DNA of 64,000 nt from Pseudomonadota bacterium. Lineage in GTDB: Bacteria; Pseudomonadota; Alphaproteobacteria; Dongiales; Dongiaceae. The stretch is from positions 3,029-67,028 of the forward strand of contig JBMONF010000029.1 of the NCBI GenBank assembly GCA_049323455.1. The letters run 5' to 3'. The notes beneath the pieces are model-generated. The model was not told the DNA's origin. It saw only the letters and a program-made list of their open reading frames with translations, and did not search any database. Shown here piece after piece: positions 7,839 to 28,818 of this stretch. Both the position numbers and the translations under genes were made by a program. Every line of letters starts with the position of its first letter. Positions within the stretch are counted from its first letter, which is position 1.

Positions 7839-8750
7839 TCAGCGCTTGAGCTTGGGGTCGAGCGCATCCCGGAGCCCGTCGCCCATCAGATTGAAGGCCA
7901 GCACGGTGACCAGGATGGCGAGGCCCGGAAAGGTCACGACCCACCAGGCGCTTTGCACGAATTCGCGCGCGTTGGCCAGCATGGTGCCCCACTCGGGCGT
8001 CGGCGGCTGGGCGCCCAAGCCCAGGAAGCCCAGTGCGGCCGCGTCGAGAATGGCGGAGGAGAAGTTCAGCGTCGCCAGCACGATCAGCGGCGCCAGGCAG
8101 TTGGGCAGCACCGTGATGAACATCAGGCGCAGGCGTCCCGCACCGGCGACGCGCGAGGCCGTCACATACTCCTTCGTGACCTCGGTGATGACGGACGCGC
8201 GCGCGACCCGGGTGAAGTGAGGCAGGTAGGTGATGGCGACCGCGATCATGGCGTTGGTCAGGCTCGGACCCAGGATCGCGACGATCACGATCGCGAGCAA
8301 CAGCGAGGGGATCGCCAGCATGATATCCATGAGCCGCATGACCAGCTCCTCGACGACGCCGCGGAAATAGCCGGCGAGGAGGCCGAGCAGGACACCGAGG
8401 CTGAGCGAAAGCGTGATGACGATGCAGCCGATCAGCAGCGAATAGCGGGCGCCGTGGATCAGCCGCGAGAGGATGTCGCGCCCGACGTCGTCGGTGCCCA
8501 GCAGAAACTCGGCCCGGCCTCCCTCCATCCAGGCCGGCGGAGCGAGGAAGGCGTCGCGATACTGCTCGATCGGCGAGTGCGGCGCCACGAGGTCGGCGAA
8601 CACCGCCATCAGGACCACCGCCACCACCACGACCAGGCCCACGAGCGCGCCCTTGTTCTCGCAGAAGGACAGCCACAGCGCCTTGGCCGGATGAAGCGGG
8701 CGGCGGCCGCCATCGGCGGTCAGGGTGCGTGGCTCGATGGCGGCGCTCAT
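7839..8750 (-). CDS. dppC: Dipeptide ABC transporter permease DppC
   Basis: 303 aa, multi-TM, BPD-transport signature (..YVTASRVAGAGRLRLMFITVLPN..). Sits between dppD and dppB. Confidence 0.85.
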   Translation of the reverse strand: MSAAIEPRTLTADGGRRPLHPAKALWLSFCENKGALVGLVVVVAVVLMAVFADLVAPHSPIEQYRDAFLAPPAWMEGGRAEFLLGTDDVGRDILSRLIHGARYSLLIGCIVITLSLSLGVLLGLLAGYFRGVVEELVMRLMDIMLAIPSLLLAIVIVAILGPSLTNAMIAVAITYLPHFTRVARASVITEVTKEYVTASRVAGAGRLRLMFITVLPNCLAPLIVLATLNFSSAILDAAALGFLGLGAQPPTPEWGTMLANAREFVQSAWWVVTFPGLAILVTVLAFNLMGDGLRDALDPKLKR

Positions 8751-8757
8751 GGCGTCA

Positions 8758-9765
8758 TCATGCGTGGCGGATGCGCGGGTTGATCAGCCCGTAGAGCAGG
8801 TCTACGGAGAGATTGACCAGCATGATGACGATGGCGACCAGCAGCACGCCCCCCTGAACGGACGGGTAGTCGCGCCGGCTGATGGAATCGACGAGCCACT
8901 TGCCGATGCCGGGCCAGGAGAAGATCGTCTCGGTCAGGATCGCGCCGGCCAGCAGCACGCCGGTCTGGAGCCCGATCACGGTCACGACCGGGATGAGGGC
9001 GTTGCGCAGCGCGTGGACCGCGACCACGCGCCGCGGCGAGAGGCCTTTGGCGCGGGCGGTCCGGATATAGTCCTCGCCCAGCACTTCGAGCATCGCGGAG
9101 CGCGTCATGCGCGCGATCACGGCGAGCGGAATGGTGCCGAGCACGATCGACGGCAGCACCAGATGGTGCAGCGCGTCGAGAAACGCCCCCTCCTGATCGG
9201 AGAGCAGGGTATCGATCAGCATGAAACGGGTGACCGGCGTGATGAAATAGACGAAATCGAGGCGCCCCGACACCGGCGTCCAGCCGAGATTGACGGAGAA
9301 CAAGATGATGAGAAGCAGTCCCCACCAGAAGATCGGCATCGAATAGCCGGTCAGCGACAGCGCCATGACGCTGTGATCGGCGAAGCGCCCCCGGCGGGTG
9401 CCGGCGAGAATGCCGACCGGCAAGCCGACGGCGACGGCGAACAGCATGGCGCAGATCGCCAGCTCCACGGTCGCCGGGAACAGCTGGAGGAACTCGGAGA
9501 GGACCGGCTTCTTCGTGACGAAGGACTTGCCGAGATCGCCTTGCAGCACGTCCCCGATATAGAGAACGTACTGTTCGAGCAGCGGCCGATCGAAGCCGAA
9601 CTGATGCATCAGGGCGGCATGGCGATCGGGATCGATCCCGCGCTCGCCCGCCATGATCTCGATCGGATCGCCCGGGATCAGCCGGATCATGGCGAAGGTC
9701 AGGAGCGTGACGCCGAAGAAGGTCGGAATCAGCCCCGCCAGTTTCGTGAGCAGAAATCGCAGCAT
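8758..9765 (-). CDS. dppB: Dipeptide ABC transporter permease DppB
   Basis: 335 aa. MLRFLLTKLAGLIPTFFGVTLLTFAMIRLIPGDP is a typical DppB/OppB N-terminus. EAA-like loop DYIRTARAKGLS. Confidence 0.85.
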   Translation of the reverse strand: MLRFLLTKLAGLIPTFFGVTLLTFAMIRLIPGDPIEIMAGERGIDPDRHAALMHQFGFDRPLLEQYVLYIGDVLQGDLGKSFVTKKPVLSEFLQLFPATVELAICAMLFAVAVGLPVGILAGTRRGRFADHSVMALSLTGYSMPIFWWGLLLIILFSVNLGWTPVSGRLDFVYFITPVTRFMLIDTLLSDQEGAFLDALHHLVLPSIVLGTIPLAVIARMTRSAMLEVLGEDYIRTARAKGLSPRRVVAVHALRNALIPVVTVIGLQTGVLLAGAILTETIFSWPGIGKWLVDSISRRDYPSVQGGVLLVAIVIMLVNLSVDLLYGLINPRIRHA

Positions 9766-9845
9766 CGCGAGAAGCGCAAAGGACGGGAGAGGTCCGCGGG
9801 GCGGACCTCTCCCGTCGCTCCGAGCCTATATCGTCCGCCGCCGGC

Positions 9846-11441
9846 TTACTGGATGTCCACCGTGTAGAACTGGTGGGTTCCCAGCGGGTCCATGATATAG
9901 CCGGTCACGTTCTTGCGCATCGGCATGTACACGACCGAGTGCGCGACCGTGACCCAGGGCGCCTCGTCCTTGAAGATCACCTGTGCCTGCTTGTAGAGCT
10001 CGGTGCGCTTGACGATGTCGGCGGTGCGCTTGGCTTCGGTGATCAGGTCGTCGAACGGCTTGTAGCACCAGCGCGCCCGGTTGCCGCCGCTCTTGGCCGC
10101 ATCACATCCCAGGAGCTGGTTGAGGAAGTTGTCCGGATCGCCGTTGTCGCCGGTCCAGCCCAGCAGCACGGTCTGATGCTCGCCCTTCTTCGAGCGGTCC
10201 AGATACTCGGCCCACTCGTAGGAGACGATCTTGGCCTTGACGCCGACCGCGGCCCAGTCGGCCTGGATCAGCTCCGCCATGCGCTGGGCGTTGGGGTTGT
10301 AAGGACGCTGGACCGGCATCGCCCAGATGTCGGTCTCGAAGCCGTCCTTGTACCCGGCCTGGGCCAAGAGCTCCTTCGCCTTGGCGGGGTCGTAAGCGTA
10401 GTCCTTCACGTCGTCGTTATAGGACCACATGGTGGGCGGGATCGGATTCTTGGCCGCCTGGCCCGCCCCCTGGAACACCGCGTCGAGAATCGCCTGCTTG
10501 TTGATGGCGTAGTTGAGCGCCTGACGGACCAGCTTGTTGTCGAAGGGCGTCTTCTCGGTGTTGAAGGCGAGATAGCCGACATTGAGCCCTTCCTGCTGCA
10601 TCACGGTGAGCGACGGATCGGCCTGCATCGCCTTGACGTCGGCCGGATTGGGATAGGGCATGATCTGGCATTCGCCGGCCTTCAGCTTGGCGTAGCGCAC
10701 GCTCGCATCCGGCGTGATGGCGAAGACGAGCTGGTCGATCTTGGCCTTGCCTTCCCAATAATCCGGATTTGCGGTGTAACGGATCGCCGCGTCCTTCTGG
10801 TAGTCGACCAGGATGAACGGGCCGGTGCCCGACGGGTTCTGGTCGAGCTCCTCGGGCTTGCCGGCCTTCATATAGGCGTCGGCCTGCTCCTTGGAGAAGA
10901 TCGAGGCGAAATCCATCGCGAGGTCGGCCAGGAACGGCGCTTCGGGCGCGTTGAGCGTGAAGCGCACCGTGTAATCGTCGAGCTTGTCGATGGATTTGAT
11001 GAGATCGGGCATGCCCATGCCCTCGAAGTACTCGTAGGTGCCGTTCGACACGGCGTGATACGGATGATCCTTCTTGAGCTGGCGCTCGAAGGAGAAGACC
11101 ACGTCGTCGGCGTTGAAGTCGCGCGTCGGCGTGAAGTCGGCCTTGTTGTGGAACTTCACGCCCTTGCGAAGATGGAAGGTGTAGACGAGCCCGTCGTCGG
11201 AAACATCCCAGCTCTCGGCGAGGCCCGGACGGATCTCGGTGGTGCCGAGCTTGAACTCGACCAGCCGGTTGAAGATGGTGCGCGACGAGGCGTCGAACGT
11301 CGTGCCGGCGGTGAAGAGCGCCGGGTTGAAGCCCTCCGGGCTGCCTTCCGAGCAATAGACCAGCGTCTTTGCTTCGGCCGCGGCCGTGAAGCCGGCGACG
11401 ATCGCCAGCGCCGCCACGGCAGCCATCAATTGACGTTTCAT
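9846..11441 (-). CDS. dppA: Periplasmic dipeptide-binding protein DppA
   Basis: ATG at 11441 gives MKRQLMAAVAALAIVAGFTAAAEA (signal peptide). The mature N-terminus KTLVYCSEGSPEGFNPALFTAGTTFDASS...LVEFKLGTTEI.PGLAESW closely parallels E. coli DppA as I recall it. Confidence 0.82.
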   Translation of the reverse strand: MKRQLMAAVAALAIVAGFTAAAEAKTLVYCSEGSPEGFNPALFTAGTTFDASSRTIFNRLVEFKLGTTEIRPGLAESWDVSDDGLVYTFHLRKGVKFHNKADFTPTRDFNADDVVFSFERQLKKDHPYHAVSNGTYEYFEGMGMPDLIKSIDKLDDYTVRFTLNAPEAPFLADLAMDFASIFSKEQADAYMKAGKPEELDQNPSGTGPFILVDYQKDAAIRYTANPDYWEGKAKIDQLVFAITPDASVRYAKLKAGECQIMPYPNPADVKAMQADPSLTVMQQEGLNVGYLAFNTEKTPFDNKLVRQALNYAINKQAILDAVFQGAGQAAKNPIPPTMWSYNDDVKDYAYDPAKAKELLAQAGYKDGFETDIWAMPVQRPYNPNAQRMAELIQADWAAVGVKAKIVSYEWAEYLDRSKKGEHQTVLLGWTGDNGDPDNFLNQLLGCDAAKSGGNRARWCYKPFDDLITEAKRTADIVKRTELYKQAQVIFKDEAPWVTVAHSVVYMPMRKNVTGYIMDPLGTHQFYTVDIQ

Positions 11442-20181: not shown

Positions 20182-20841
20182 TTACGCGGCGCGCGGCTTG
20201 GAATTGTGGTTCGCCGCCGGGCGCAGCGAGCGGACGGCCAGCTCTTCGGCCACCCAGTCGATATCGCCGCGAACGAAGCCGATGTCCGCCAGCATGTGGT
20301 TGTCGAGCTGGCTCAGCTCCTTGGCCGCCGCGCGATAGCGGCTCCACAGCCGGACCGAGGAGACTTCCGCCTCGGCGTCGGCCTTGGTCCAGGCCGGGGC
20401 TTCGCCCGAGAGGCTCCTCACCAGCGCCGGGATTTCGTCGCGCGTGAGCCCGATGTCGCGCAGCATCCGGTCGTCGAGCGCCATCAGGTTGTGATAGGCG
20501 CGGCGGCGGCGCGCCCAGCGCAGGACCGGGCGGACCAGCATGTCGCGAAGGAACGACCCGATCTCGGCCAGGACCGACCGCTCGACCGGCGCGTAGGCCT
20601 GCGCGGTGAGCTCCGCGATCGTCTCGACGTCGCCGCGGGTGAGGCCGACATCGGCGAGCATCCGCTCGTTCAGCAGCGCCAGCTCCTGCTGCACCTGGTG
20701 CTTGCGGGCGGCATGTCGCCAATGGGCGGCGAGCGCCCGGCCGAACGCGGCAATCCGCGCAAGACCATCGACAGAGGCGCTGGGAACCGGCATCGTCGCG
20801 CGGTCGGCCATCGCCTTTTCCATCTGGGTGAACCCGGTCAT
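20182..20841 (-). CDS. Protein composed of three tandem DUF1127 units
   Basis: Three repeats of the DUF1127 signature W..R.....EL..L.DRML.DIGL.R.DI: aa ~33-76 (LALLNERMLADVGLTRGDV), ~97-141 (LMALDDRMLRDIGLTRDEI) and ~160-198 (LSQLDNHMLADIGFVRGDI). The start is ambiguous (20841, 20823 or 20811). Confidence 0.7.
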   Translation of the reverse strand: MTGFTQMEKAMADRATMPVPSASVDGLARIAAFGRALAAHWRHAARKHQVQQELALLNERMLADVGLTRGDVETIAELTAQAYAPVERSVLAEIGSFLRDMLVRPVLRWARRRRAYHNLMALDDRMLRDIGLTRDEIPALVRSLSGEAPAWTKADAEAEVSSVRLWSRYRAAAKELSQLDNHMLADIGFVRGDIDWVAEELAVRSLRPAANHNSKPRAA

Positions 20842-21108
20842 TTTGAAGGATCCGATTGTCTATTGGTGAGCGGCATTGCCCACCGCTTATGCGAGCAAAA
20901 ATATAGGGAACATCGGGCCGTTGAGGCAGGGGTTTTGCTGCATTGCAGTAATGCGCTAAATGTATAGGTTGCCAAATTATTGACGAATTTTGCATATCAC
21001 GGAAGAGAGTGTGGTAATTTTATGTCGAGCTTGGAGCGCTGAGAACGGGCAGGAGAAGGCAGGGTGGATCAGCCTCTTTTAGGCGGCCGTTACGAGGGCG
21101 ACGAGGCC

Positions 21109-23127
21109 ATGGCTGTGCGCCTGAAATCGAGCGGCTCTCGGTTGGATATCAAGGCGTTGCGCCAACTCGTCGCAGGCGTGCTGGCAGCCCCTCGCGGCGA
21201 GCGTCCGCGCGAGTGGATGGCCCTCGTGGCGGCCGAGCGCGATGCCGCTTTGGAGGCGCAGCTGGAAGCGCTGCTGGCCGAAATGGCGGCAGAGCGCCCG
21301 GCCTCGGGCCCTTGCCGGGGAGCCGCCCAGGTCGAGCGTCTTGCTGCACTGCGAAATGAATTGGCGCGCCATCGTCTGGATGGCTTCCTGGTGCCGCGCG
21401 CCGACGAGTTCCAGGGCGAATATGTGCCGCCCCGGGCCGAGCGGCTGGCCTGGCTCACGGGCTTCACCGGGTCCGCCGGCCTCGCCGTCGTGCTGCGCGA
21501 TCGGGCCGCGATGTTCGTCGACGGCCGCTACACGTTGCAGGTCCGCGACGAGGTCGACGCGGCGCTCTACGAGTATCGCCATCTCTCCAATGAGCCGCCC
21601 GAACGCTGGCTGGCCGAGCATCTGGCCGCGGGTGCCCGGCTCGGCTACGACCCGTGGCTCCACACCGCCGACGGGCTGGCCGCGATCCGCGAAGCCGTCG
21701 AGCGCAAGGGGGCGGCTCTCGTCGCTTGCGAGCGCAATCCACTCGATGCGGTCTGGAGCGACCAGCCGCCGGCGCCGATGGCGCCCGTGGTGGCGCATCC
21801 GGTCCGCTTCGCCGGCCGCGAGGCCGCCGACAAGCGCGCCGCGGTCGGCCGCGAGCTGGAGGCGGCCGGGATCGACGCCGCCGTCATCAGCCAACCGGCA
21901 TCGCTCGCCTGGCTGCTGAATATCCGCGGCGCCGACGTGCCGCGCACGCCGCTGCCGCTGGGCTTTGCGCTCGTGCATCGCGACGGCTCGGTCGAGCTGT
22001 TCATCGAGCCCTTGAAGCTGGTGCCGGGCCTCGAGGCCCATCTCGGCAACGGCGTCTCGGTCTCGCCGCCCTCGGCCTTCGGCGCGGCGCTCGACCGGCT
22101 CGGCGCCGAGCGCCGGCGCGTGCTGGTGGATCGCGGCTCGGCGGCCTTGTGGATCCAGGAGCGGCTGAAGGCGGCCGGCGCCGGGACGGTCGCGGGCGAA
22201 GACCCTTGCCTGCTGCCCAAGGCTTGCAAAAACGAGGTCGAGCTCCAGGGGATGCGGGCCGCGCACGTCCGGGACGGCGTCGCGGTCGCGCGCTTTCTCG
22301 CCTGGCTTGCGAAGCATGCGCCGGCAGGCCGGGTGGACGAGCTTGAGGCGGCCGAGCGCCTGGCCGCGTTCCGCCGCGAGGGCGAGCTCTTCCGCGATTT
22401 CAGCTTCGACACGATCCCGGGCTCGGGGCCCAACGGCGCCATCGTGCATTACCATGCGAGCCCGCGCACCAACCGCAGGCTCCGGCCCGGCGAGCTGTTC
22501 CTGCTCGATTCGGGCGCGCAATATCTCGACGGCACCACCGACATCACGCGCACCGTCGCCATCGGCGCACCTGCGCCCGAGATGCGCGACCGCTTCACCC
22601 GCGTGCTCAAGGGCCATATCGCGCTGGGCTCGGCGCGTTTCCCCCGCGGCACCACCGGCAGCCAGCTCGACGTGCTGGCGCGCCGCGCGCTCTGGGACGT
22701 CGGCCTCGACTACGACCACGGCACGGGCCACGGGGTGGGCAGCTATCTCGCCGTGCACGAAGGGCCGCAGCGCATCTCGAAGCTGCCCAATCGCGTGCCG
22801 CTGCTGCCGGGCATGATCGTGTCGAACGAGCCCGGCTACTACAAGACCGGCGCTTACGGCATCCGCATCGAGAACCTGATCGTGGTGGTGCCCGCCGCGA
22901 CGACCGAGCCGCCGCGCGAAGGCGAATTGCCGATGCTGGGCTTCGAGACGATCACGCTGGCGCCGATCGATCTCGCGCTGGTCGAGCCCGCGCTCATGAC
23001 GCCGGCGGAGATCGCCTGGCTCGACGCCTATCACGCCCGTGTGCGCGAGACGCTGACGCCGCTCCTCGACCGCGAGACGGCCGCCTGGCTTGCCGGCGCG
23101 GCGCGGCCGGTGGGGGCTCTTTCCTAA
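21109..23127 (+). CDS. pepP: Xaa-Pro aminopeptidase (aminopeptidase P, M24B)
   Basis: Creatinase-like N domains (RLDGFLVPRADEFQGEYV...GFTGSAG) and the M24 catalytic motifs (DSGAQYLDGTTDITRT, HGTGHGVGSYLAVHEGP, SNEPGYY, IRIENL). An unusual ~75-90 aa N-terminal extension is present. The start is uncertain (GTG 21064 or ATG 21109). Confidence 0.85.
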   Translation: MAVRLKSSGSRLDIKALRQLVAGVLAAPRGERPREWMALVAAERDAALEAQLEALLAEMAAERPASGPCRGAAQVERLAALRNELARHRLDGFLVPRADEFQGEYVPPRAERLAWLTGFTGSAGLAVVLRDRAAMFVDGRYTLQVRDEVDAALYEYRHLSNEPPERWLAEHLAAGARLGYDPWLHTADGLAAIREAVERKGAALVACERNPLDAVWSDQPPAPMAPVVAHPVRFAGREAADKRAAVGRELEAAGIDAAVISQPASLAWLLNIRGADVPRTPLPLGFALVHRDGSVELFIEPLKLVPGLEAHLGNGVSVSPPSAFGAALDRLGAERRRVLVDRGSAALWIQERLKAAGAGTVAGEDPCLLPKACKNEVELQGMRAAHVRDGVAVARFLAWLAKHAPAGRVDELEAAERLAAFRREGELFRDFSFDTIPGSGPNGAIVHYHASPRTNRRLRPGELFLLDSGAQYLDGTTDITRTVAIGAPAPEMRDRFTRVLKGHIALGSARFPRGTTGSQLDVLARRALWDVGLDYDHGTGHGVGSYLAVHEGPQRISKLPNRVPLLPGMIVSNEPGYYKTGAYGIRIENLIVVVPAATTEPPREGELPMLGFETITLAPIDLALVEPALMTPAEIAWLDAYHARVRETLTPLLDRETAAWLAGAARPVGALS

Positions 23128-23130
23128 GTC

Positions 23131-23156
23131 ATTGCCGGGCTCGACCCGGCAATTCC
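23131..23156. repeat. Hairpin repeat immediately after the pepP stop (GTCATTGCCGGG...CCCGGCAAT type)
   Basis: TTGCCGGG-ctcga-CCCGGCAA is a perfect 8-bp stem. It resembles the GTCATCCCGG/CCGGGATGAC elements at 62359-62478 and 63014-63054. It may double as the pepP terminator. Confidence 0.4.
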
Positions 23157-23360
23157 GGAAAGGGCCTCATGGTGCAGATTTTTGGGGCAGATATTCCCGA
23201 TCGGTCCCCGAGTCGTTCCCGAACGGCGATCCAAGTCACGGCGAACAGGCAAAAACGCCACCGCAGCATGTGTCGGGAATCACGGCGGATTCGTGGTGCA
23301 ACCGGCGAACACGCTTGCGGACACATTTTCCCGCTTCCAGACTCGAAGCGCCAAAGTGAA

Positions 23361-23393
23361 AAGCGGCCCCGAGGCTGCAACTCGGGACCGCTT
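23361..23393 (-). terminator. Intrinsic-terminator-like hairpin, best read on the minus strand
   Basis: AAGCGGCCCCGAG / CTCGGGACCGCTT pair at 12 of 13 positions around a 7-nt loop. On the minus strand the stem is followed by TTTTCACTTT. Confidence 0.3.
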
Positions 23394-23530
23394 CGCTTTG
23401 AGTAGCTTTCTCCAGTTCCCCGGAGGCTACGGAATGGGGACAGCCGCGTGTGCGCGATTCACCCCCTGAGCGTAAAAAGCGTACGCGCGGCTGACTCCAC
23501 AGGTCAAGTGGGAACCATCTGACCACAAGA

Positions 23531-23547
23531 TTGACCTAGGAGGTCAA
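23531..23547 (+). promoter_or_regulatory. Perfect inverted repeat overlapping the Shine-Dalgarno of the DUF3892-like gene
   Basis: TTGACCT-AGG-AGGTCAA. The SD AGGAGG (23538-23543) lies in the loop and the 3' arm, with the ATG at 23549. A third AGGTCAA half-site is at 23501-23507. Confidence 0.35.
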
Positions 23548-23548
23548 A

Positions 23549-23818
23549 ATGGCCGACGTGTGGGTTCAGTGTATCAACAAGACGCCGCGCGACGACACTC
23601 ACCAAGGGATCACCTATCTTGGTGGTCCTGGCTGGAAGTGGACCCGGCAAGAGGTGATTGCCTCGATTAAGAACGGGTCCAACACCTTCTACACCTTCGT
23701 TGGGGGCAAGAGGGCTGACGTGAAGGTGCGTGAGACTGCGGATGGGCGCGAGTACGTCCAGACGCAAGCCGATGGGTACTGGAACGATAATCTTCTCGCG
23801 CTGCCGGAGTGCGTGTAA
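23549..23818 (+). CDS. DUF3892-like small protein
   Basis: 89 aa with a strong SD. The pattern ..INK....D.H.GITYLGG..W.W....VI.SI..G...FYT.VGG..A.V.V......Y.QT.ADG...DNLL.LP.C matches my recollection of DUF3892. G+C and codon usage are atypical for the window. Confidence 0.6.
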   Translation: MADVWVQCINKTPRDDTHQGITYLGGPGWKWTRQEVIASIKNGSNTFYTFVGGKRADVKVRETADGREYVQTQADGYWNDNLLALPECV

Positions 23819-23925
23819 GCGGCAGCTCTGGTGTTTAGAGGTGAGTGAACGGCGGGCAGCGACCGCGCTGCCCGCTTTGCCCGGCTTCCGTTCCCGTTGG
23901 CGAGACGCGGCCCCGGATAGGTGTT

Positions 23926-24975
23926 ATGACGGCGCGATTAAGACGACCCTTCATGGTCATTCAGGAGCGCACATACTCTGAGAAACATTGCTTTTACTGC
24001 GGTGCGCTCTTGCGAGGAAAGGCGACCAGAGAGCATGTGTTCCCGAGATGGCTTCAAGACAAATTCAACCTGCGGCACCAGACGATCCACCTGCTAAATG
24101 GAACGACGATCAGGTATGCCAACTTGACGGTGCCATGCTGCTCCCTATGCAACAACGTGCACTTAGCCAAATTGGAAAGGAAGGTGAAGCGCGTCCTTTT
24201 TGAAGAGCCTATTTGGGTGGCGCGCAGAGAAGCCGCGGACCTGTTCACATGGGCGATAAAGATTTTGCTCGGGGTTGTCTACCGGGAGCGATTTCTGCCG
24301 CGGGATCGGCGAACACATGGATCAGAAACCATCTTGCCAGACGAGCTGAGGAATGCCTTTGAGCTATCCCACTTCTTTGTCCAGCGGCTTCGAGCTCCGA
24401 TGGCCTTCTCTGCCATGGATCTAAAGCTGACGATTCCCGGTTCCATATTCGTATTCAATCTGCAGTCGCCGGACCATGTTGATGCTCAGTTTGATTTCCG
24501 TGACGATATTCTCAATCTCTGCGTGTTCATGAGGATGGGCACCAGAGGGCTTATCGCCGTCGCAGATGGAGGGGCATTGGAGGGAACGCTCGGGAGTACG
24601 ATTCGTCGTGATGCCCGAAGAAAGCTTCATCCACTTCAATTCGAAGAGATGGGGGCGAACTGCTTTTACAAGGCATCTTTGTTCAACCGATCCCCAGCGT
24701 ACATCATAGTCGAGGCGCCGAAGGGTTATCAGATCATTCAGGGGCCGATAGCCGGCATGTCCTCCAGGCCGATTTACGAGGATTGGGACGTGCAGGAATA
24801 TGCGAAGTTCCTTTCATTTTTCACGGGCATTCCGCTTGAGCACGTAAACCCTCAGCCCAATCGGGTGCGGACATGGATGAAGGACCCTGAGGGAAAGCCA
24901 CTGCGTCTGGACATTCGCAAGCATCCTTGGCGAGAGCCTCCTTTGCAATCCACTCAGCCTCTCCGCTCCGTCTAA
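23926..24975 (+). CDS. HNH (His-Me finger)-type nuclease N-terminal module fused to a ~270-aa uncharacterised domain
   Basis: ATG at 23926 follows AGGTG. The N-terminus is HCFYCG...TREHVFPRWL...LLNG...VPCCSLCNNVHLAKLE (CxxC..EH..N..CxxCN..H). The remainder has no motif I recognise. Low G+C with many A/T-ending codons. Alternative start at 23953. Confidence 0.55.
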   Translation: MTARLRRPFMVIQERTYSEKHCFYCGALLRGKATREHVFPRWLQDKFNLRHQTIHLLNGTTIRYANLTVPCCSLCNNVHLAKLERKVKRVLFEEPIWVARREAADLFTWAIKILLGVVYRERFLPRDRRTHGSETILPDELRNAFELSHFFVQRLRAPMAFSAMDLKLTIPGSIFVFNLQSPDHVDAQFDFRDDILNLCVFMRMGTRGLIAVADGGALEGTLGSTIRRDARRKLHPLQFEEMGANCFYKASLFNRSPAYIIVEAPKGYQIIQGPIAGMSSRPIYEDWDVQEYAKFLSFFTGIPLEHVNPQPNRVRTWMKDPEGKPLRLDIRKHPWREPPLQSTQPLRSV

Positions 24976-25041
24976 CCCTGCGCAGCGGTCTCCGTCACTG
25001 CGCGAGGCATGGAAAGATGAGCATGTGCTAGCGAGACCCAC

Positions 25042-28818
<3,777 letters not shown>

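Follow-up and report, generated by a model that had tools for sequence, protein, structure and literature searches.

The DNA analysed here, referred to as the window (64,000 nucleotides of contig JBMONF010000029.1, assembly GCA_049323455.1, from a member of the alphaproteobacterial Dongiaceae), carries a 1.9-kb islet of low GC content between the convergent housekeeping genes pepP and ligA. The islet contains two open reading frames (ORFs) on the plus strand. ORF1 encodes a stand-alone DUF3892 protein and is preceded by a structured leader, and ORF2 encodes a putative HNH nuclease joined to an unrecognised C-terminal domain. On balance, we favour the view that the islet is a mosaic of two independent single-gene cassettes at an insertion hot spot and that ORF2 is a solitary nuclease of the defence type. 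Of these elements, the insertion and the independence of ORF1 and ORF2 stand on much firmer ground than the defence-type role, which is inferred. The locus is organised as follows.

23118-25040, no strand: islet, insertion or replacement between pepP and ligA (homology break, lowest GC of the window)
23549-23818, plus strand: ORF1, stand-alone DUF3892 protein, 89 aa (PF13031, E 1.9e-17; phrog_8224, E 1.4e-12)
23926-24975, plus strand: ORF2, 349-aa protein with an HNH domain and an unrecognised domain (family alignment, AlphaFold2 model, homologues)
21064-23127, plus strand: pepP, M24 Xaa-Pro aminopeptidase, left flank (Pfam Peptidase_M24, Creatinase_N, Creatinase_N_2, Peptidase_M24_C)
25042-27150, minus strand: ligA, NAD-dependent DNA ligase, 702 aa, right flank (Pfam domains; identical to P0241, 702 aa)

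The islet and its landing site

The pepP gene stops at 23127 and ligA at 25042. In 300-nt windows, the GC content between them falls to 52-58% over 23500-25000, compared with 67-75% on either side. The bin 24001-25000 (54.3% GC) is the lowest of the 64 one-kb bins, ~5 standard deviations (SD) under the mean of 0.695 (SD 0.029; both values taken from the other one-kb bins of the window). Codon usage differs as well, with a GC content at third codon positions of 0.74 in ORF1 and 0.63 in ORF2, versus 0.875 in pepP and 0.93 in ligA.

Homologues of LigA put the source organism close to Hypericibacter/Dongiaceae. The ligA-pepP junction occurs in four states among relatives whose LigA is 80-100% identical. 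In L168 and L169 (LigA 95% identical), the two genes are convergent with only 183 bp between them (8110-8292). In L170 (LigA 89% identical), the junction is occupied by a LysR regulator and a major facilitator superfamily (MFS) transporter (8104-11201), and in Hypericibacter adhaerens (LigA 80% identical) by an IS110 transposase (L172, 8170-9490). The DUF3892 and HNH islet of the window is the fourth state. Nucleotide homology between the window and L168/L169 ends at 23117 and resumes at 25041, and the similarity of their 183-bp spacer to the islet is no better than that of shuffled sequences. Because homology breaks at these two positions and the spacer of the relatives is dissimilar, the segment 23118-25040 is an insertion or replacement. 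Two more distant relatives hold other cargo at the same place, which makes the junction a recurrent landing site and an insertion hot spot. The locus provides a clean natural example of a convergent-gene junction that serves this purpose, with four states preserved in relatives. L170 also has, next to pepP, an 87-bp stretch that repeats the 3' end of ligA at 78% identity, which hints at integration through recombination at the end of ligA.

With respect to the usual features of genomic islands, the islet has an atypical composition and an empty site in close relatives, and it lacks an integrase, a tRNA target and flanking repeats. There is no tRNA in the whole 64-kb window and no integrase or transposase in the ORF list of the pepP-ligA segment. 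Direct or inverted repeats flanking the islet are only at chance level and none is convincing. We recognised no promoter on the plus strand of the islet, and the islet DNA gave no match to plasmids. A GTTRRRY core was not seen by eye at the cassette ends; no formal attC or intI search was made.

An initial annotation, made from the window sequence alone, had described a low-GC, horizontally acquired two-ORF segment with atypical codon use between housekeeping genes. The two ORFs, their flanks and the drop in GC are all as it stated. Its estimate of ~50% GC was too low, the measured value being nearer 53-58%. The GC content at third codon positions bears out the unusual codon use, and searching likewise returned no integrase, transposase, tRNA or convincing flanking repeat. 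It had also proposed to compare the pepP-ligA junction in close relatives; the empty site in L168/L169, together with the foreign base composition and codon usage, speaks for horizontal acquisition.

Two further features of the flanks were noted. A second, smaller GC dip at 20800-21100 (51%, 300-nt window) lies just upstream of pepP. It probably corresponds to the promoter region from which pepP and a YjiS-like gene are divergently transcribed, which is the arrangement in relatives. On the other side, the mechanically called ligA ORF (25042-28317, minus strand) comprises 1091 aa instead of the 702 aa of true LigA, because the high-GC frame stays open upstream. This extension is overlapped by recN on the same strand.

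The histories of ORF1 and ORF2

ORF1 and ORF2 are neighbours on the same strand of a foreign islet, and the gap between them is 107 nt. This arrangement raises the question whether they form a two-gene phage-defence, abortive-infection or toxin/immunity module, with DUF3892 as the sensor or antidote and the HNH protein as the effector. DUF3892 is indeed predicted in the literature as a conflict-system sensor and is fused to effectors elsewhere. We therefore turn to the relatives of both genes.

On the ORF2 side, the sample consists of 165 loci (82 from species-representative genomes or exact look-ups, 80 from metagenomes and a few from further exact look-ups), of which 144 include at least 500 bp of upstream sequence. 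A DUF3892 gene adjoins the ORF2 relative in none of the 165, according to a hidden Markov model (HMM) that was built from relatives at least 55% identical and that very divergent copies could escape. DUF3892 occurs near an ORF2 relative only in three mutually related Streptomyces loci, which hold both families within 6 kb. Here, however, DUF3892 lies 5-6 kb downstream and adjoins a ThiF/E1-like gene instead of the HNH gene. All-against-all clustering of the neighbouring ORFs gave no family common to the ORF2 loci, the Streptomyces group excepted. Within two genes on either side of the ORF2 relative, 37 diverse loci contain three integrases, two resolvases, two methyltransferases, a few PADLOC matches and many housekeeping genes.

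The Streptomyces cluster itself (L036, 2239-9098; also L030 and L078) comprises the HNH-family gene, DUF3800, two unknowns, DUF3892, DUF6791-ThiF (E1-like) and DUF6527, and looks like a ubiquitin-like conflict island.

On the ORF1 side, close relatives of the DUF3892 gene were seen in five distinct settings, none of which includes an ORF2 homologue. The islet DNA itself is a mosaic. Its block 23359-23817 has its nearest relative in the Dongiaceae locus L083 (72% identity) and its block 23957-24935 in contig L085 (73% identity), and neither L083 nor L085 carries the other islet gene. Across ~108 non-redundant contexts, the two families co-localise within 8 kb in two independent cases, which are the window and the Streptomyces island. 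This suggests that both genes tend to occur in variable regions of the same kind, without implying that they work together.

The two-gene module thus fails because there is no adjacency in 165 loci, because five DUF3892 contexts are without the nuclease, because the nearest DNA relatives of the two genes differ and because a hairpin lies between them. By these comparisons, ORF1 and ORF2 are neither a conserved pair nor a two-gene system. That two genes lie side by side in a foreign islet does not count as evidence for a system; in this case, the comparative data separate them.

ORF1 matches PF13031 with 63.9 bits (cutoff 22.3), whereby residues 6-86 span positions 2-71 of the 71 in the profile. 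It has 148 homologues, the closest of which are 78-81% identical. Phages gave one weak match and PADLOC-DB v2 only a chance-level one (0.056). DUF3892 is an uncharacterised domain that has been tied to conflict systems. It occurs in CapH/CapP-regulated operons and is fused to Min-Wnt effectors. Its fold resembles double-stranded RNA-binding domains and ribosome hibernation factors, and is predicted in the literature as a sensor of RNA or ribosomes. The neighbours of close ORF1 relatives fit this picture. They include Uma2 in one case, a type IIG restriction-modification gene, a toxin-antitoxin pair, a caspase-like peptidase and an integrase in another, and a Schlafen/AlbA_2 ATPase in a further one. 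In a subgroup of DUF3892 genes (L196-L198), a gene for a LexA-like S24 peptidase lies ~140-220 bp upstream in divergent orientation. This suggests damage-responsive control, in parallel to the CapH/CapP association described in the literature.

Three further elements lie around ORF1.

23355-23548, plus strand: structured leader upstream of ORF1 (DNA conservation, fold energy, consensus pairing)
23851-23876, plus strand: GC-rich hairpin between ORF1 and ORF2, with a 10-11 bp stem and a 4-nt loop, then UUUG (inverted repeat I15, fold)
23131-23153, no strand: palindrome ATTGCCGGG CTCGA CCCGGCAAT with a perfect 9-bp stem, directly after the pepP stop (unique in the window)

The block conserved in L083 spans both the leader and ORF1 and includes the DUF3892 gene of L083. 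The leader also aligns with L178/L179, and ~190 nt thus travel with the gene in three distinct sequences. Its minimum free energy is -92.4 kcal/mol for 197 nt (z = -5.96), and none of 200 shuffles was as stable. The consensus of the three sequences has 46 pairs, 9 of them with compensatory changes. The indels are not multiples of three, which makes the leader incompatible with coding. Rfam gave no match. The leader was not found upstream of more distant DUF3892 genes, and the upstream DNA of L177, L180 and L196 is unrelated. A 17-nt word of the leader recurs in four viral contigs; these are chance matches with no DUF3892 downstream. On these very few sequences, the leader is a candidate clade-specific cis-regulatory RNA. 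It could be a new RNA of this kind that controls a DUF3892 conflict-system protein, and ORF1 probably has its own RNA-level regulation.

At the position of the hairpin 23851-23876, L083 has a canonical hairpin with a U-run after its DUF3892 gene. A simple terminator scan did not call the window hairpin because its T-run is short. The two hairpins speak, indirectly, against co-transcription of ORF1 and ORF2. Taken together, ORF1, its ~190-nt structured leader and its own terminator-like hairpin form one unit.

The palindrome occurs once in the window and was matched by none of 100 shuffles (fold -16.9 kcal/mol, z -2.3). A 26-nt copy, 96% identical, lies at 6024-6049 of L083, ~630 bp downstream of the closest DUF3892 homologue. 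The palindrome may be a terminator, an element resembling repetitive extragenic palindromes (REP) or the boundary of a unit or cassette.

The ORF2 family

ORF2 most likely starts at ATG 23926 and has 349 aa. This start is supported by the family alignment; an independent 349-aa gene call (P0526) agrees. In the NCBI record of the contig, ORF2 is called as 263 aa from an internal GTG (V87). The missing part (23926-24183, residues 1-86) holds the HNH motif, which is consequently absent from the NCBI call. The RefSeq call of a Pseudomonas lurida homologue is truncated likewise, with 239 aa versus 338. At least two public records of the family thus lack the nuclease domain through a miscalled start codon. 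The full-length protein is divided as follows.

23977-24210, plus strand: ORF2 residues ~18-95, putative zinc-finger HNH (beta-beta-alpha-metal) domain (conserved residues, HNH_5 in relatives, 4h9d)
24211-24930, plus strand: ORF2 residues ~96-335, helical linker and alpha/beta C-terminal domain (conserved residues, no database match)

Among the ORF2 homologues, 120 have 330-350 aa. In an alignment of 44 homologues, the invariant residues are C25, E36, H37, N58, C72, C75 and N76, whereas C22 is shared by at least 90% of the sequences and H79 by the majority. ORF2 of the window carries all residues that are invariant in the family. The resulting pattern, CxxC...(D/E)H...N...CxxCN, is that of zinc-finger HNH nucleases and shows both the His-Me finger and the two knuckles. 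A profile of the family aligns the CxxC and PxCxxCN knuckles with those of the HNH endonuclease 4h9d in the PDB (E 0.08). In this region, the AlphaFold2 model (pLDDT 90, pTM 0.89) has short strands at 34-37, 53-55, 61-63 and 68-71 and then a helix at 73-92, all with pLDDT >90; Foldseek returned no HNH structure.

The C-terminal part is predicted with similar confidence (pLDDT 89.9) and has its own conserved positions. W109, K112, D214, G216, Q238 and E241 are invariant, and D193, R203, H235 and P236 nearly so. Its ~255 residues match nothing in Pfam, NCBIfam, PADLOC or the PDB sequences. Neither the full-length model, searched against PDB and BFVD, nor the isolated C-terminal domain, searched against PDB, had a Foldseek match with E<0.1. 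The best E values for ORF2 were 0.27-0.38 against the PDB and 0.11 against BFVD. Recurring matches to the TBP fold (TM at most 0.22, probability at most 0.15) were treated as noise. In PHROGs, ORF2 hit only phrog_10503 (function unknown), apart from a weak HNH match on the N-terminus. Judged from the model, the C-terminal fold appears to be without a solved or viral-predicted counterpart in the PDB and BFVD.

A scan of 1.84 billion representatives with the C-terminal domain placed the family at 503 clusters at 50% identity. In the best 150 of these clusters, the domain is almost always found at residues ~100-340 of proteins with 330-350 aa and always behind HNH; the sole variants in architecture are an N-terminal winged helix-turn-helix or a longer N-terminal extension, and in none is the domain shuffled onto another effector. 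Proteins that seemed to consist of the C-terminal domain only have V or L as their first residue, directly behind the HNH domain, and were set aside as truncated calls. The hosts include Alpha-, Beta- and Gammaproteobacteria, Acidobacteriota, Actinomycetota, Bacillota, Bacteroidota and others. None of the 50,697 phage genomes of INPHARED contains a member, and IMG/VR holds two full-length members in 2.9 million contigs. The family is also represented on 15 plasmids, of which 10 are conjugative, and there invariably carries the annotation hypothetical. Accession numbers of its members are not mentioned in the literature we searched.

Family members move without their surroundings. L022 and L050 (84% nucleotide identity) have only 7880-8971 in common, and L003 and L073 share only the gene. 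What moves is the gene alone, together with ~100 bp of flank. Two copies in one metagenome-assembled genome (L022/L023), 99.8% identical over 12 kb, are an assembly or strain duplicate and do not represent transposition. In 53 of 57 non-redundant loci, the GC content of the gene is below that of its flanks (median -7.7 points, Wilcoxon p 1.8e-10). Frameshifts or splits affect some relatives, among them L006, L031 and L036.

Plasmid copies adjoin insertion sequence elements, a helix-turn-helix (HTH)-PIN pair and DUF3883. On several conjugative plasmids (L174, L202 and L204 from Agrobacterium/Rhizobium, and L203 and L175), a family member lies near the HTH-PIN pair and imuA-imuB-dnaE2, or near dinB, a Y-family polymerase or SRAP. 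A general link to translesion polymerases was rejected, as homologues of ImuA, ImuB, DnaE2, DinB or Y-family polymerases were found in none of 164 chromosomal or metagenomic loci (1.53 Mb of flanks in total).

The protein-level claims of the initial annotation fared unevenly. ORF1 is the DUF3892 protein it had named, with a score above the gathering cutoff. ORF2 does open with an HNH/His-Me finger, whose zinc knuckles, E36-H37, N58 and N76 are conserved in the 44 homologues. The remainder, which it gave as ~270 aa, is as unrecognisable as it had said, albeit shorter at ~255 aa. Foldseek on the ORF2 model, a step it had suggested, found no fold match and leaves the C-terminal domain unrecognised. 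Its statement that the pair corresponds to no named system agrees with the PADLOC results. The proposal that ORF1 and ORF2 form a module did not hold up, given 0/165 adjacencies, 0/5 DUF3892 contexts with the nuclease, different nearest DNA relatives and the hairpin between the ORFs. The annotation had itself named the absence of co-occurrence elsewhere as an argument against the module, and this is essentially what we find, with the exception of the three Streptomyces loci, where 5-6 kb separate the two families.

Interpretation and relation to known systems

We propose that two independently mobile single-gene accessory cassettes landed at the convergent ligA-pepP junction of a Hypericibacter/Dongiaceae-like alphaproteobacterium. 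One would encode ORF1 as an independent DUF3892 protein. The other would be ORF2, a gene that moves without company and encodes a two-part protein of constant architecture with an intact, conserved HNH active site. ORF2 would act as a stand-alone, metal-dependent DNA endonuclease of the zinc-stabilised beta-beta-alpha-metal type. In this model, the zinc ligands would be CxxC...CxxC, with E36 and N76 as ligands of the catalytic metal, H37 as the general base and N58 as a structural residue. We take these roles to be analogous to those in T4 endonuclease VII-type HNH enzymes. The C-terminal domain would select or gate the substrate, and the protein would act without a partner in the accessory or defence gene pool of the host, in the manner of type IV restriction enzymes or abortive-infection nucleases. 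Most plausibly, ORF2 is a solitary restriction-like or abortive-infection nuclease; a selfish endonuclease gene and a DNA-processing factor linked to plasmids are less plausible alternatives. A more specific version is that ORF2 is an unrecognised single-gene immune or exclusion nuclease, whose C-terminal domain senses a feature of invading DNA and thereby licenses HNH cleavage. The sensed feature could be, for example, a DNA modification, a structure or a replication intermediate. We consider this version tentative, a possibility that we would not bet on.

Several observations weigh against the proposal. ORF2 of the window has no Pfam match at E<=1 and lies under every HNH threshold (the gathering cutoff of HNH_5 is 27.5 bits). 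HNH_5 (PF14279) is matched at E<=0.01 by 22 of the 44 relatives, and these matches are weak (best 8.2e-6). We regard the relationship between ORF2 and HNH_5, as seen in these profile matches, as real but sub-threshold and do not place ORF2 in PF14279. PADLOC-DB v2 gave no match to ORF2 at E<=1, there is no PADLOC model for it, and many loci of the family sit between ordinary housekeeping genes. Because no fold match was obtained, what the C-terminal domain does can only be surmised. As to the independence of the two genes, the reach of the DUF3892 HMM stated above has to be borne in mind. The weak U-tract of the hairpin 23851-23876 makes read-through into ORF2 possible, and as neighbours in this genome ORF1 and ORF2 could still be functionally linked locally in a way that escapes comparative data.

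Alternatively, ORF2 may be a selfish free-standing HNH endonuclease gene, homing-like or self-mobilising, that spreads by cutting DNA, is copied or inserted at the cut, and brings no benefit to the host. A mobile unit of the gene alone with ~100 bp of flank, an intergenic site between conserved genes, the AT-shifted composition everywhere and the lack of an accompanying recombinase would all be in line with this. Free-standing homing endonuclease genes of phage T4 are likewise found intergenically between conserved genes. However, copies with 84% nucleotide identity reside in unrelated contexts, so that there is no single cognate site, and the family is missing from the phage genomes, nearly absent from IMG/VR and not found in introns or inteins. 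In addition, the different cargo at the ligA-pepP junction implies that the site, and not ORF2, attracts insertions. We consider a selfish gene unlikely, and by the unrelated flanks and the lack of phage matches ORF2 was rejected as a homing endonuclease gene proper.

It is also conceivable that the islet is inert cargo, and that both genes are functionless hitch-hikers heading to decay. The islet has no mobility gene, partner or recognisable plus-strand promoter, and relatives such as L006, L031 and L036 carry frameshifted or split copies. Yet both ORFs are intact, ORF2 retains all family-invariant residues and its family is conserved across phyla, and the pairing in the ORF1 leader is kept through compensatory changes. 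We find this scenario rather improbable.

In a further scenario, ORF2 would serve plasmid- or integrative and conjugative element (ICE)-linked DNA processing, for example post-transfer establishment, SOS/damage responses or anti-defence, and the chromosomal copies would be leftovers. Such a role is suggested by the 10 of 15 plasmid matches that fall on conjugative plasmids, and by plasmids of Agrobacterium, Rhizobium, Bradyrhizobium and Lactiplantibacillus on which the gene lies a few kb from imuA-imuB-dnaE2, dinB, a Y-family polymerase or SRAP. Against it, none of these polymerase genes (ImuA, ImuB, DnaE2, DinB, Y-family) has a homologue in the flanks of the 164 loci, the rhizobial plasmid contexts are mutually related and represent one or two events, and most loci have no plasmid or ICE genes nearby. 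We thus regard it as very improbable. Finally, a two-gene module of ORF1 and ORF2 is largely refuted by the lack of co-occurrence, and with a hairpin between the genes, a separate canonical terminator behind the closest DUF3892 gene and no PADLOC match we give it hardly any credence.

What the locus offers, under the two-cassette proposal, is a rare, unnamed variant of HNH nuclease with a new-looking domain, a stand-alone DUF3892 gene with a structured leader, and a well-documented hot spot. If ORF2 works as a solitary nuclease, it would constitute a compact one-gene system and add a new protein domain to bacterial conflict genes.

Comparison with known systems places the two genes as follows. 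Like the DUF3892 genes of CapH/CapP-regulated operons and Min-Wnt fusions, the relatives of ORF1 are found among restriction-modification, toxin-antitoxin, caspase-like, Schlafen/AlbA_2, E1-like and S24 genes. Unlike these, ORF1 stands alone, with neither an HTH/peptidase regulator nor a fused effector, and is preceded by a structured leader known in three sequences only.

For ORF2, the nearest enzymes in terms of motif are HNH_5 and T4 endonuclease VII-type nucleases, with which it shares the motif order and the invariant residues, and 4h9d is aligned over both knuckles. HNH_5 (PF14279) and the zinc-finger HNH nucleases belong to groups 1 and 8 of the His-Me finger enzymes (Jablonska et al. 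2017, PMC5714182). Group 8, which consists of HNH_5 only, is bacterial and without viral members (PMC5714182), and the ORF2 family is likewise bacterial and essentially absent from phages. It differs from HNH_5 in a family-specific LLNGT insert between E36-H37 and C72, and in that its HNH domain is N-terminal and joined to a ~250-aa domain outside any HNH family description.

Regarding genomic setting, ORF2 resembles the homing genes mobA-E of phage T4 as a single-gene, AT-shifted intergenic unit between conserved genes. In contrast to these, ORF2 has no cognate site, its flanks differ in close relatives and its family is absent from phage genomes.

McrA and ScoMcrA, both modification-dependent restriction enzymes of type IV, are single-gene, partner-less HNH nucleases with a recognition domain that occur sporadically and on mobile DNA, in chromosomes and plasmids. 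The HNH domain of McrA is C-terminal and its reader domain is known, whereas ORF2 has the reverse order and an added domain without a match to SRA, SBD or any other reader. In its overall design, the ORF2 family is nonetheless similar to these enzymes, as it likewise consists of single, partner-less genes that combine HNH with an added domain and that are sporadic and mobile on both chromosomes and plasmids.

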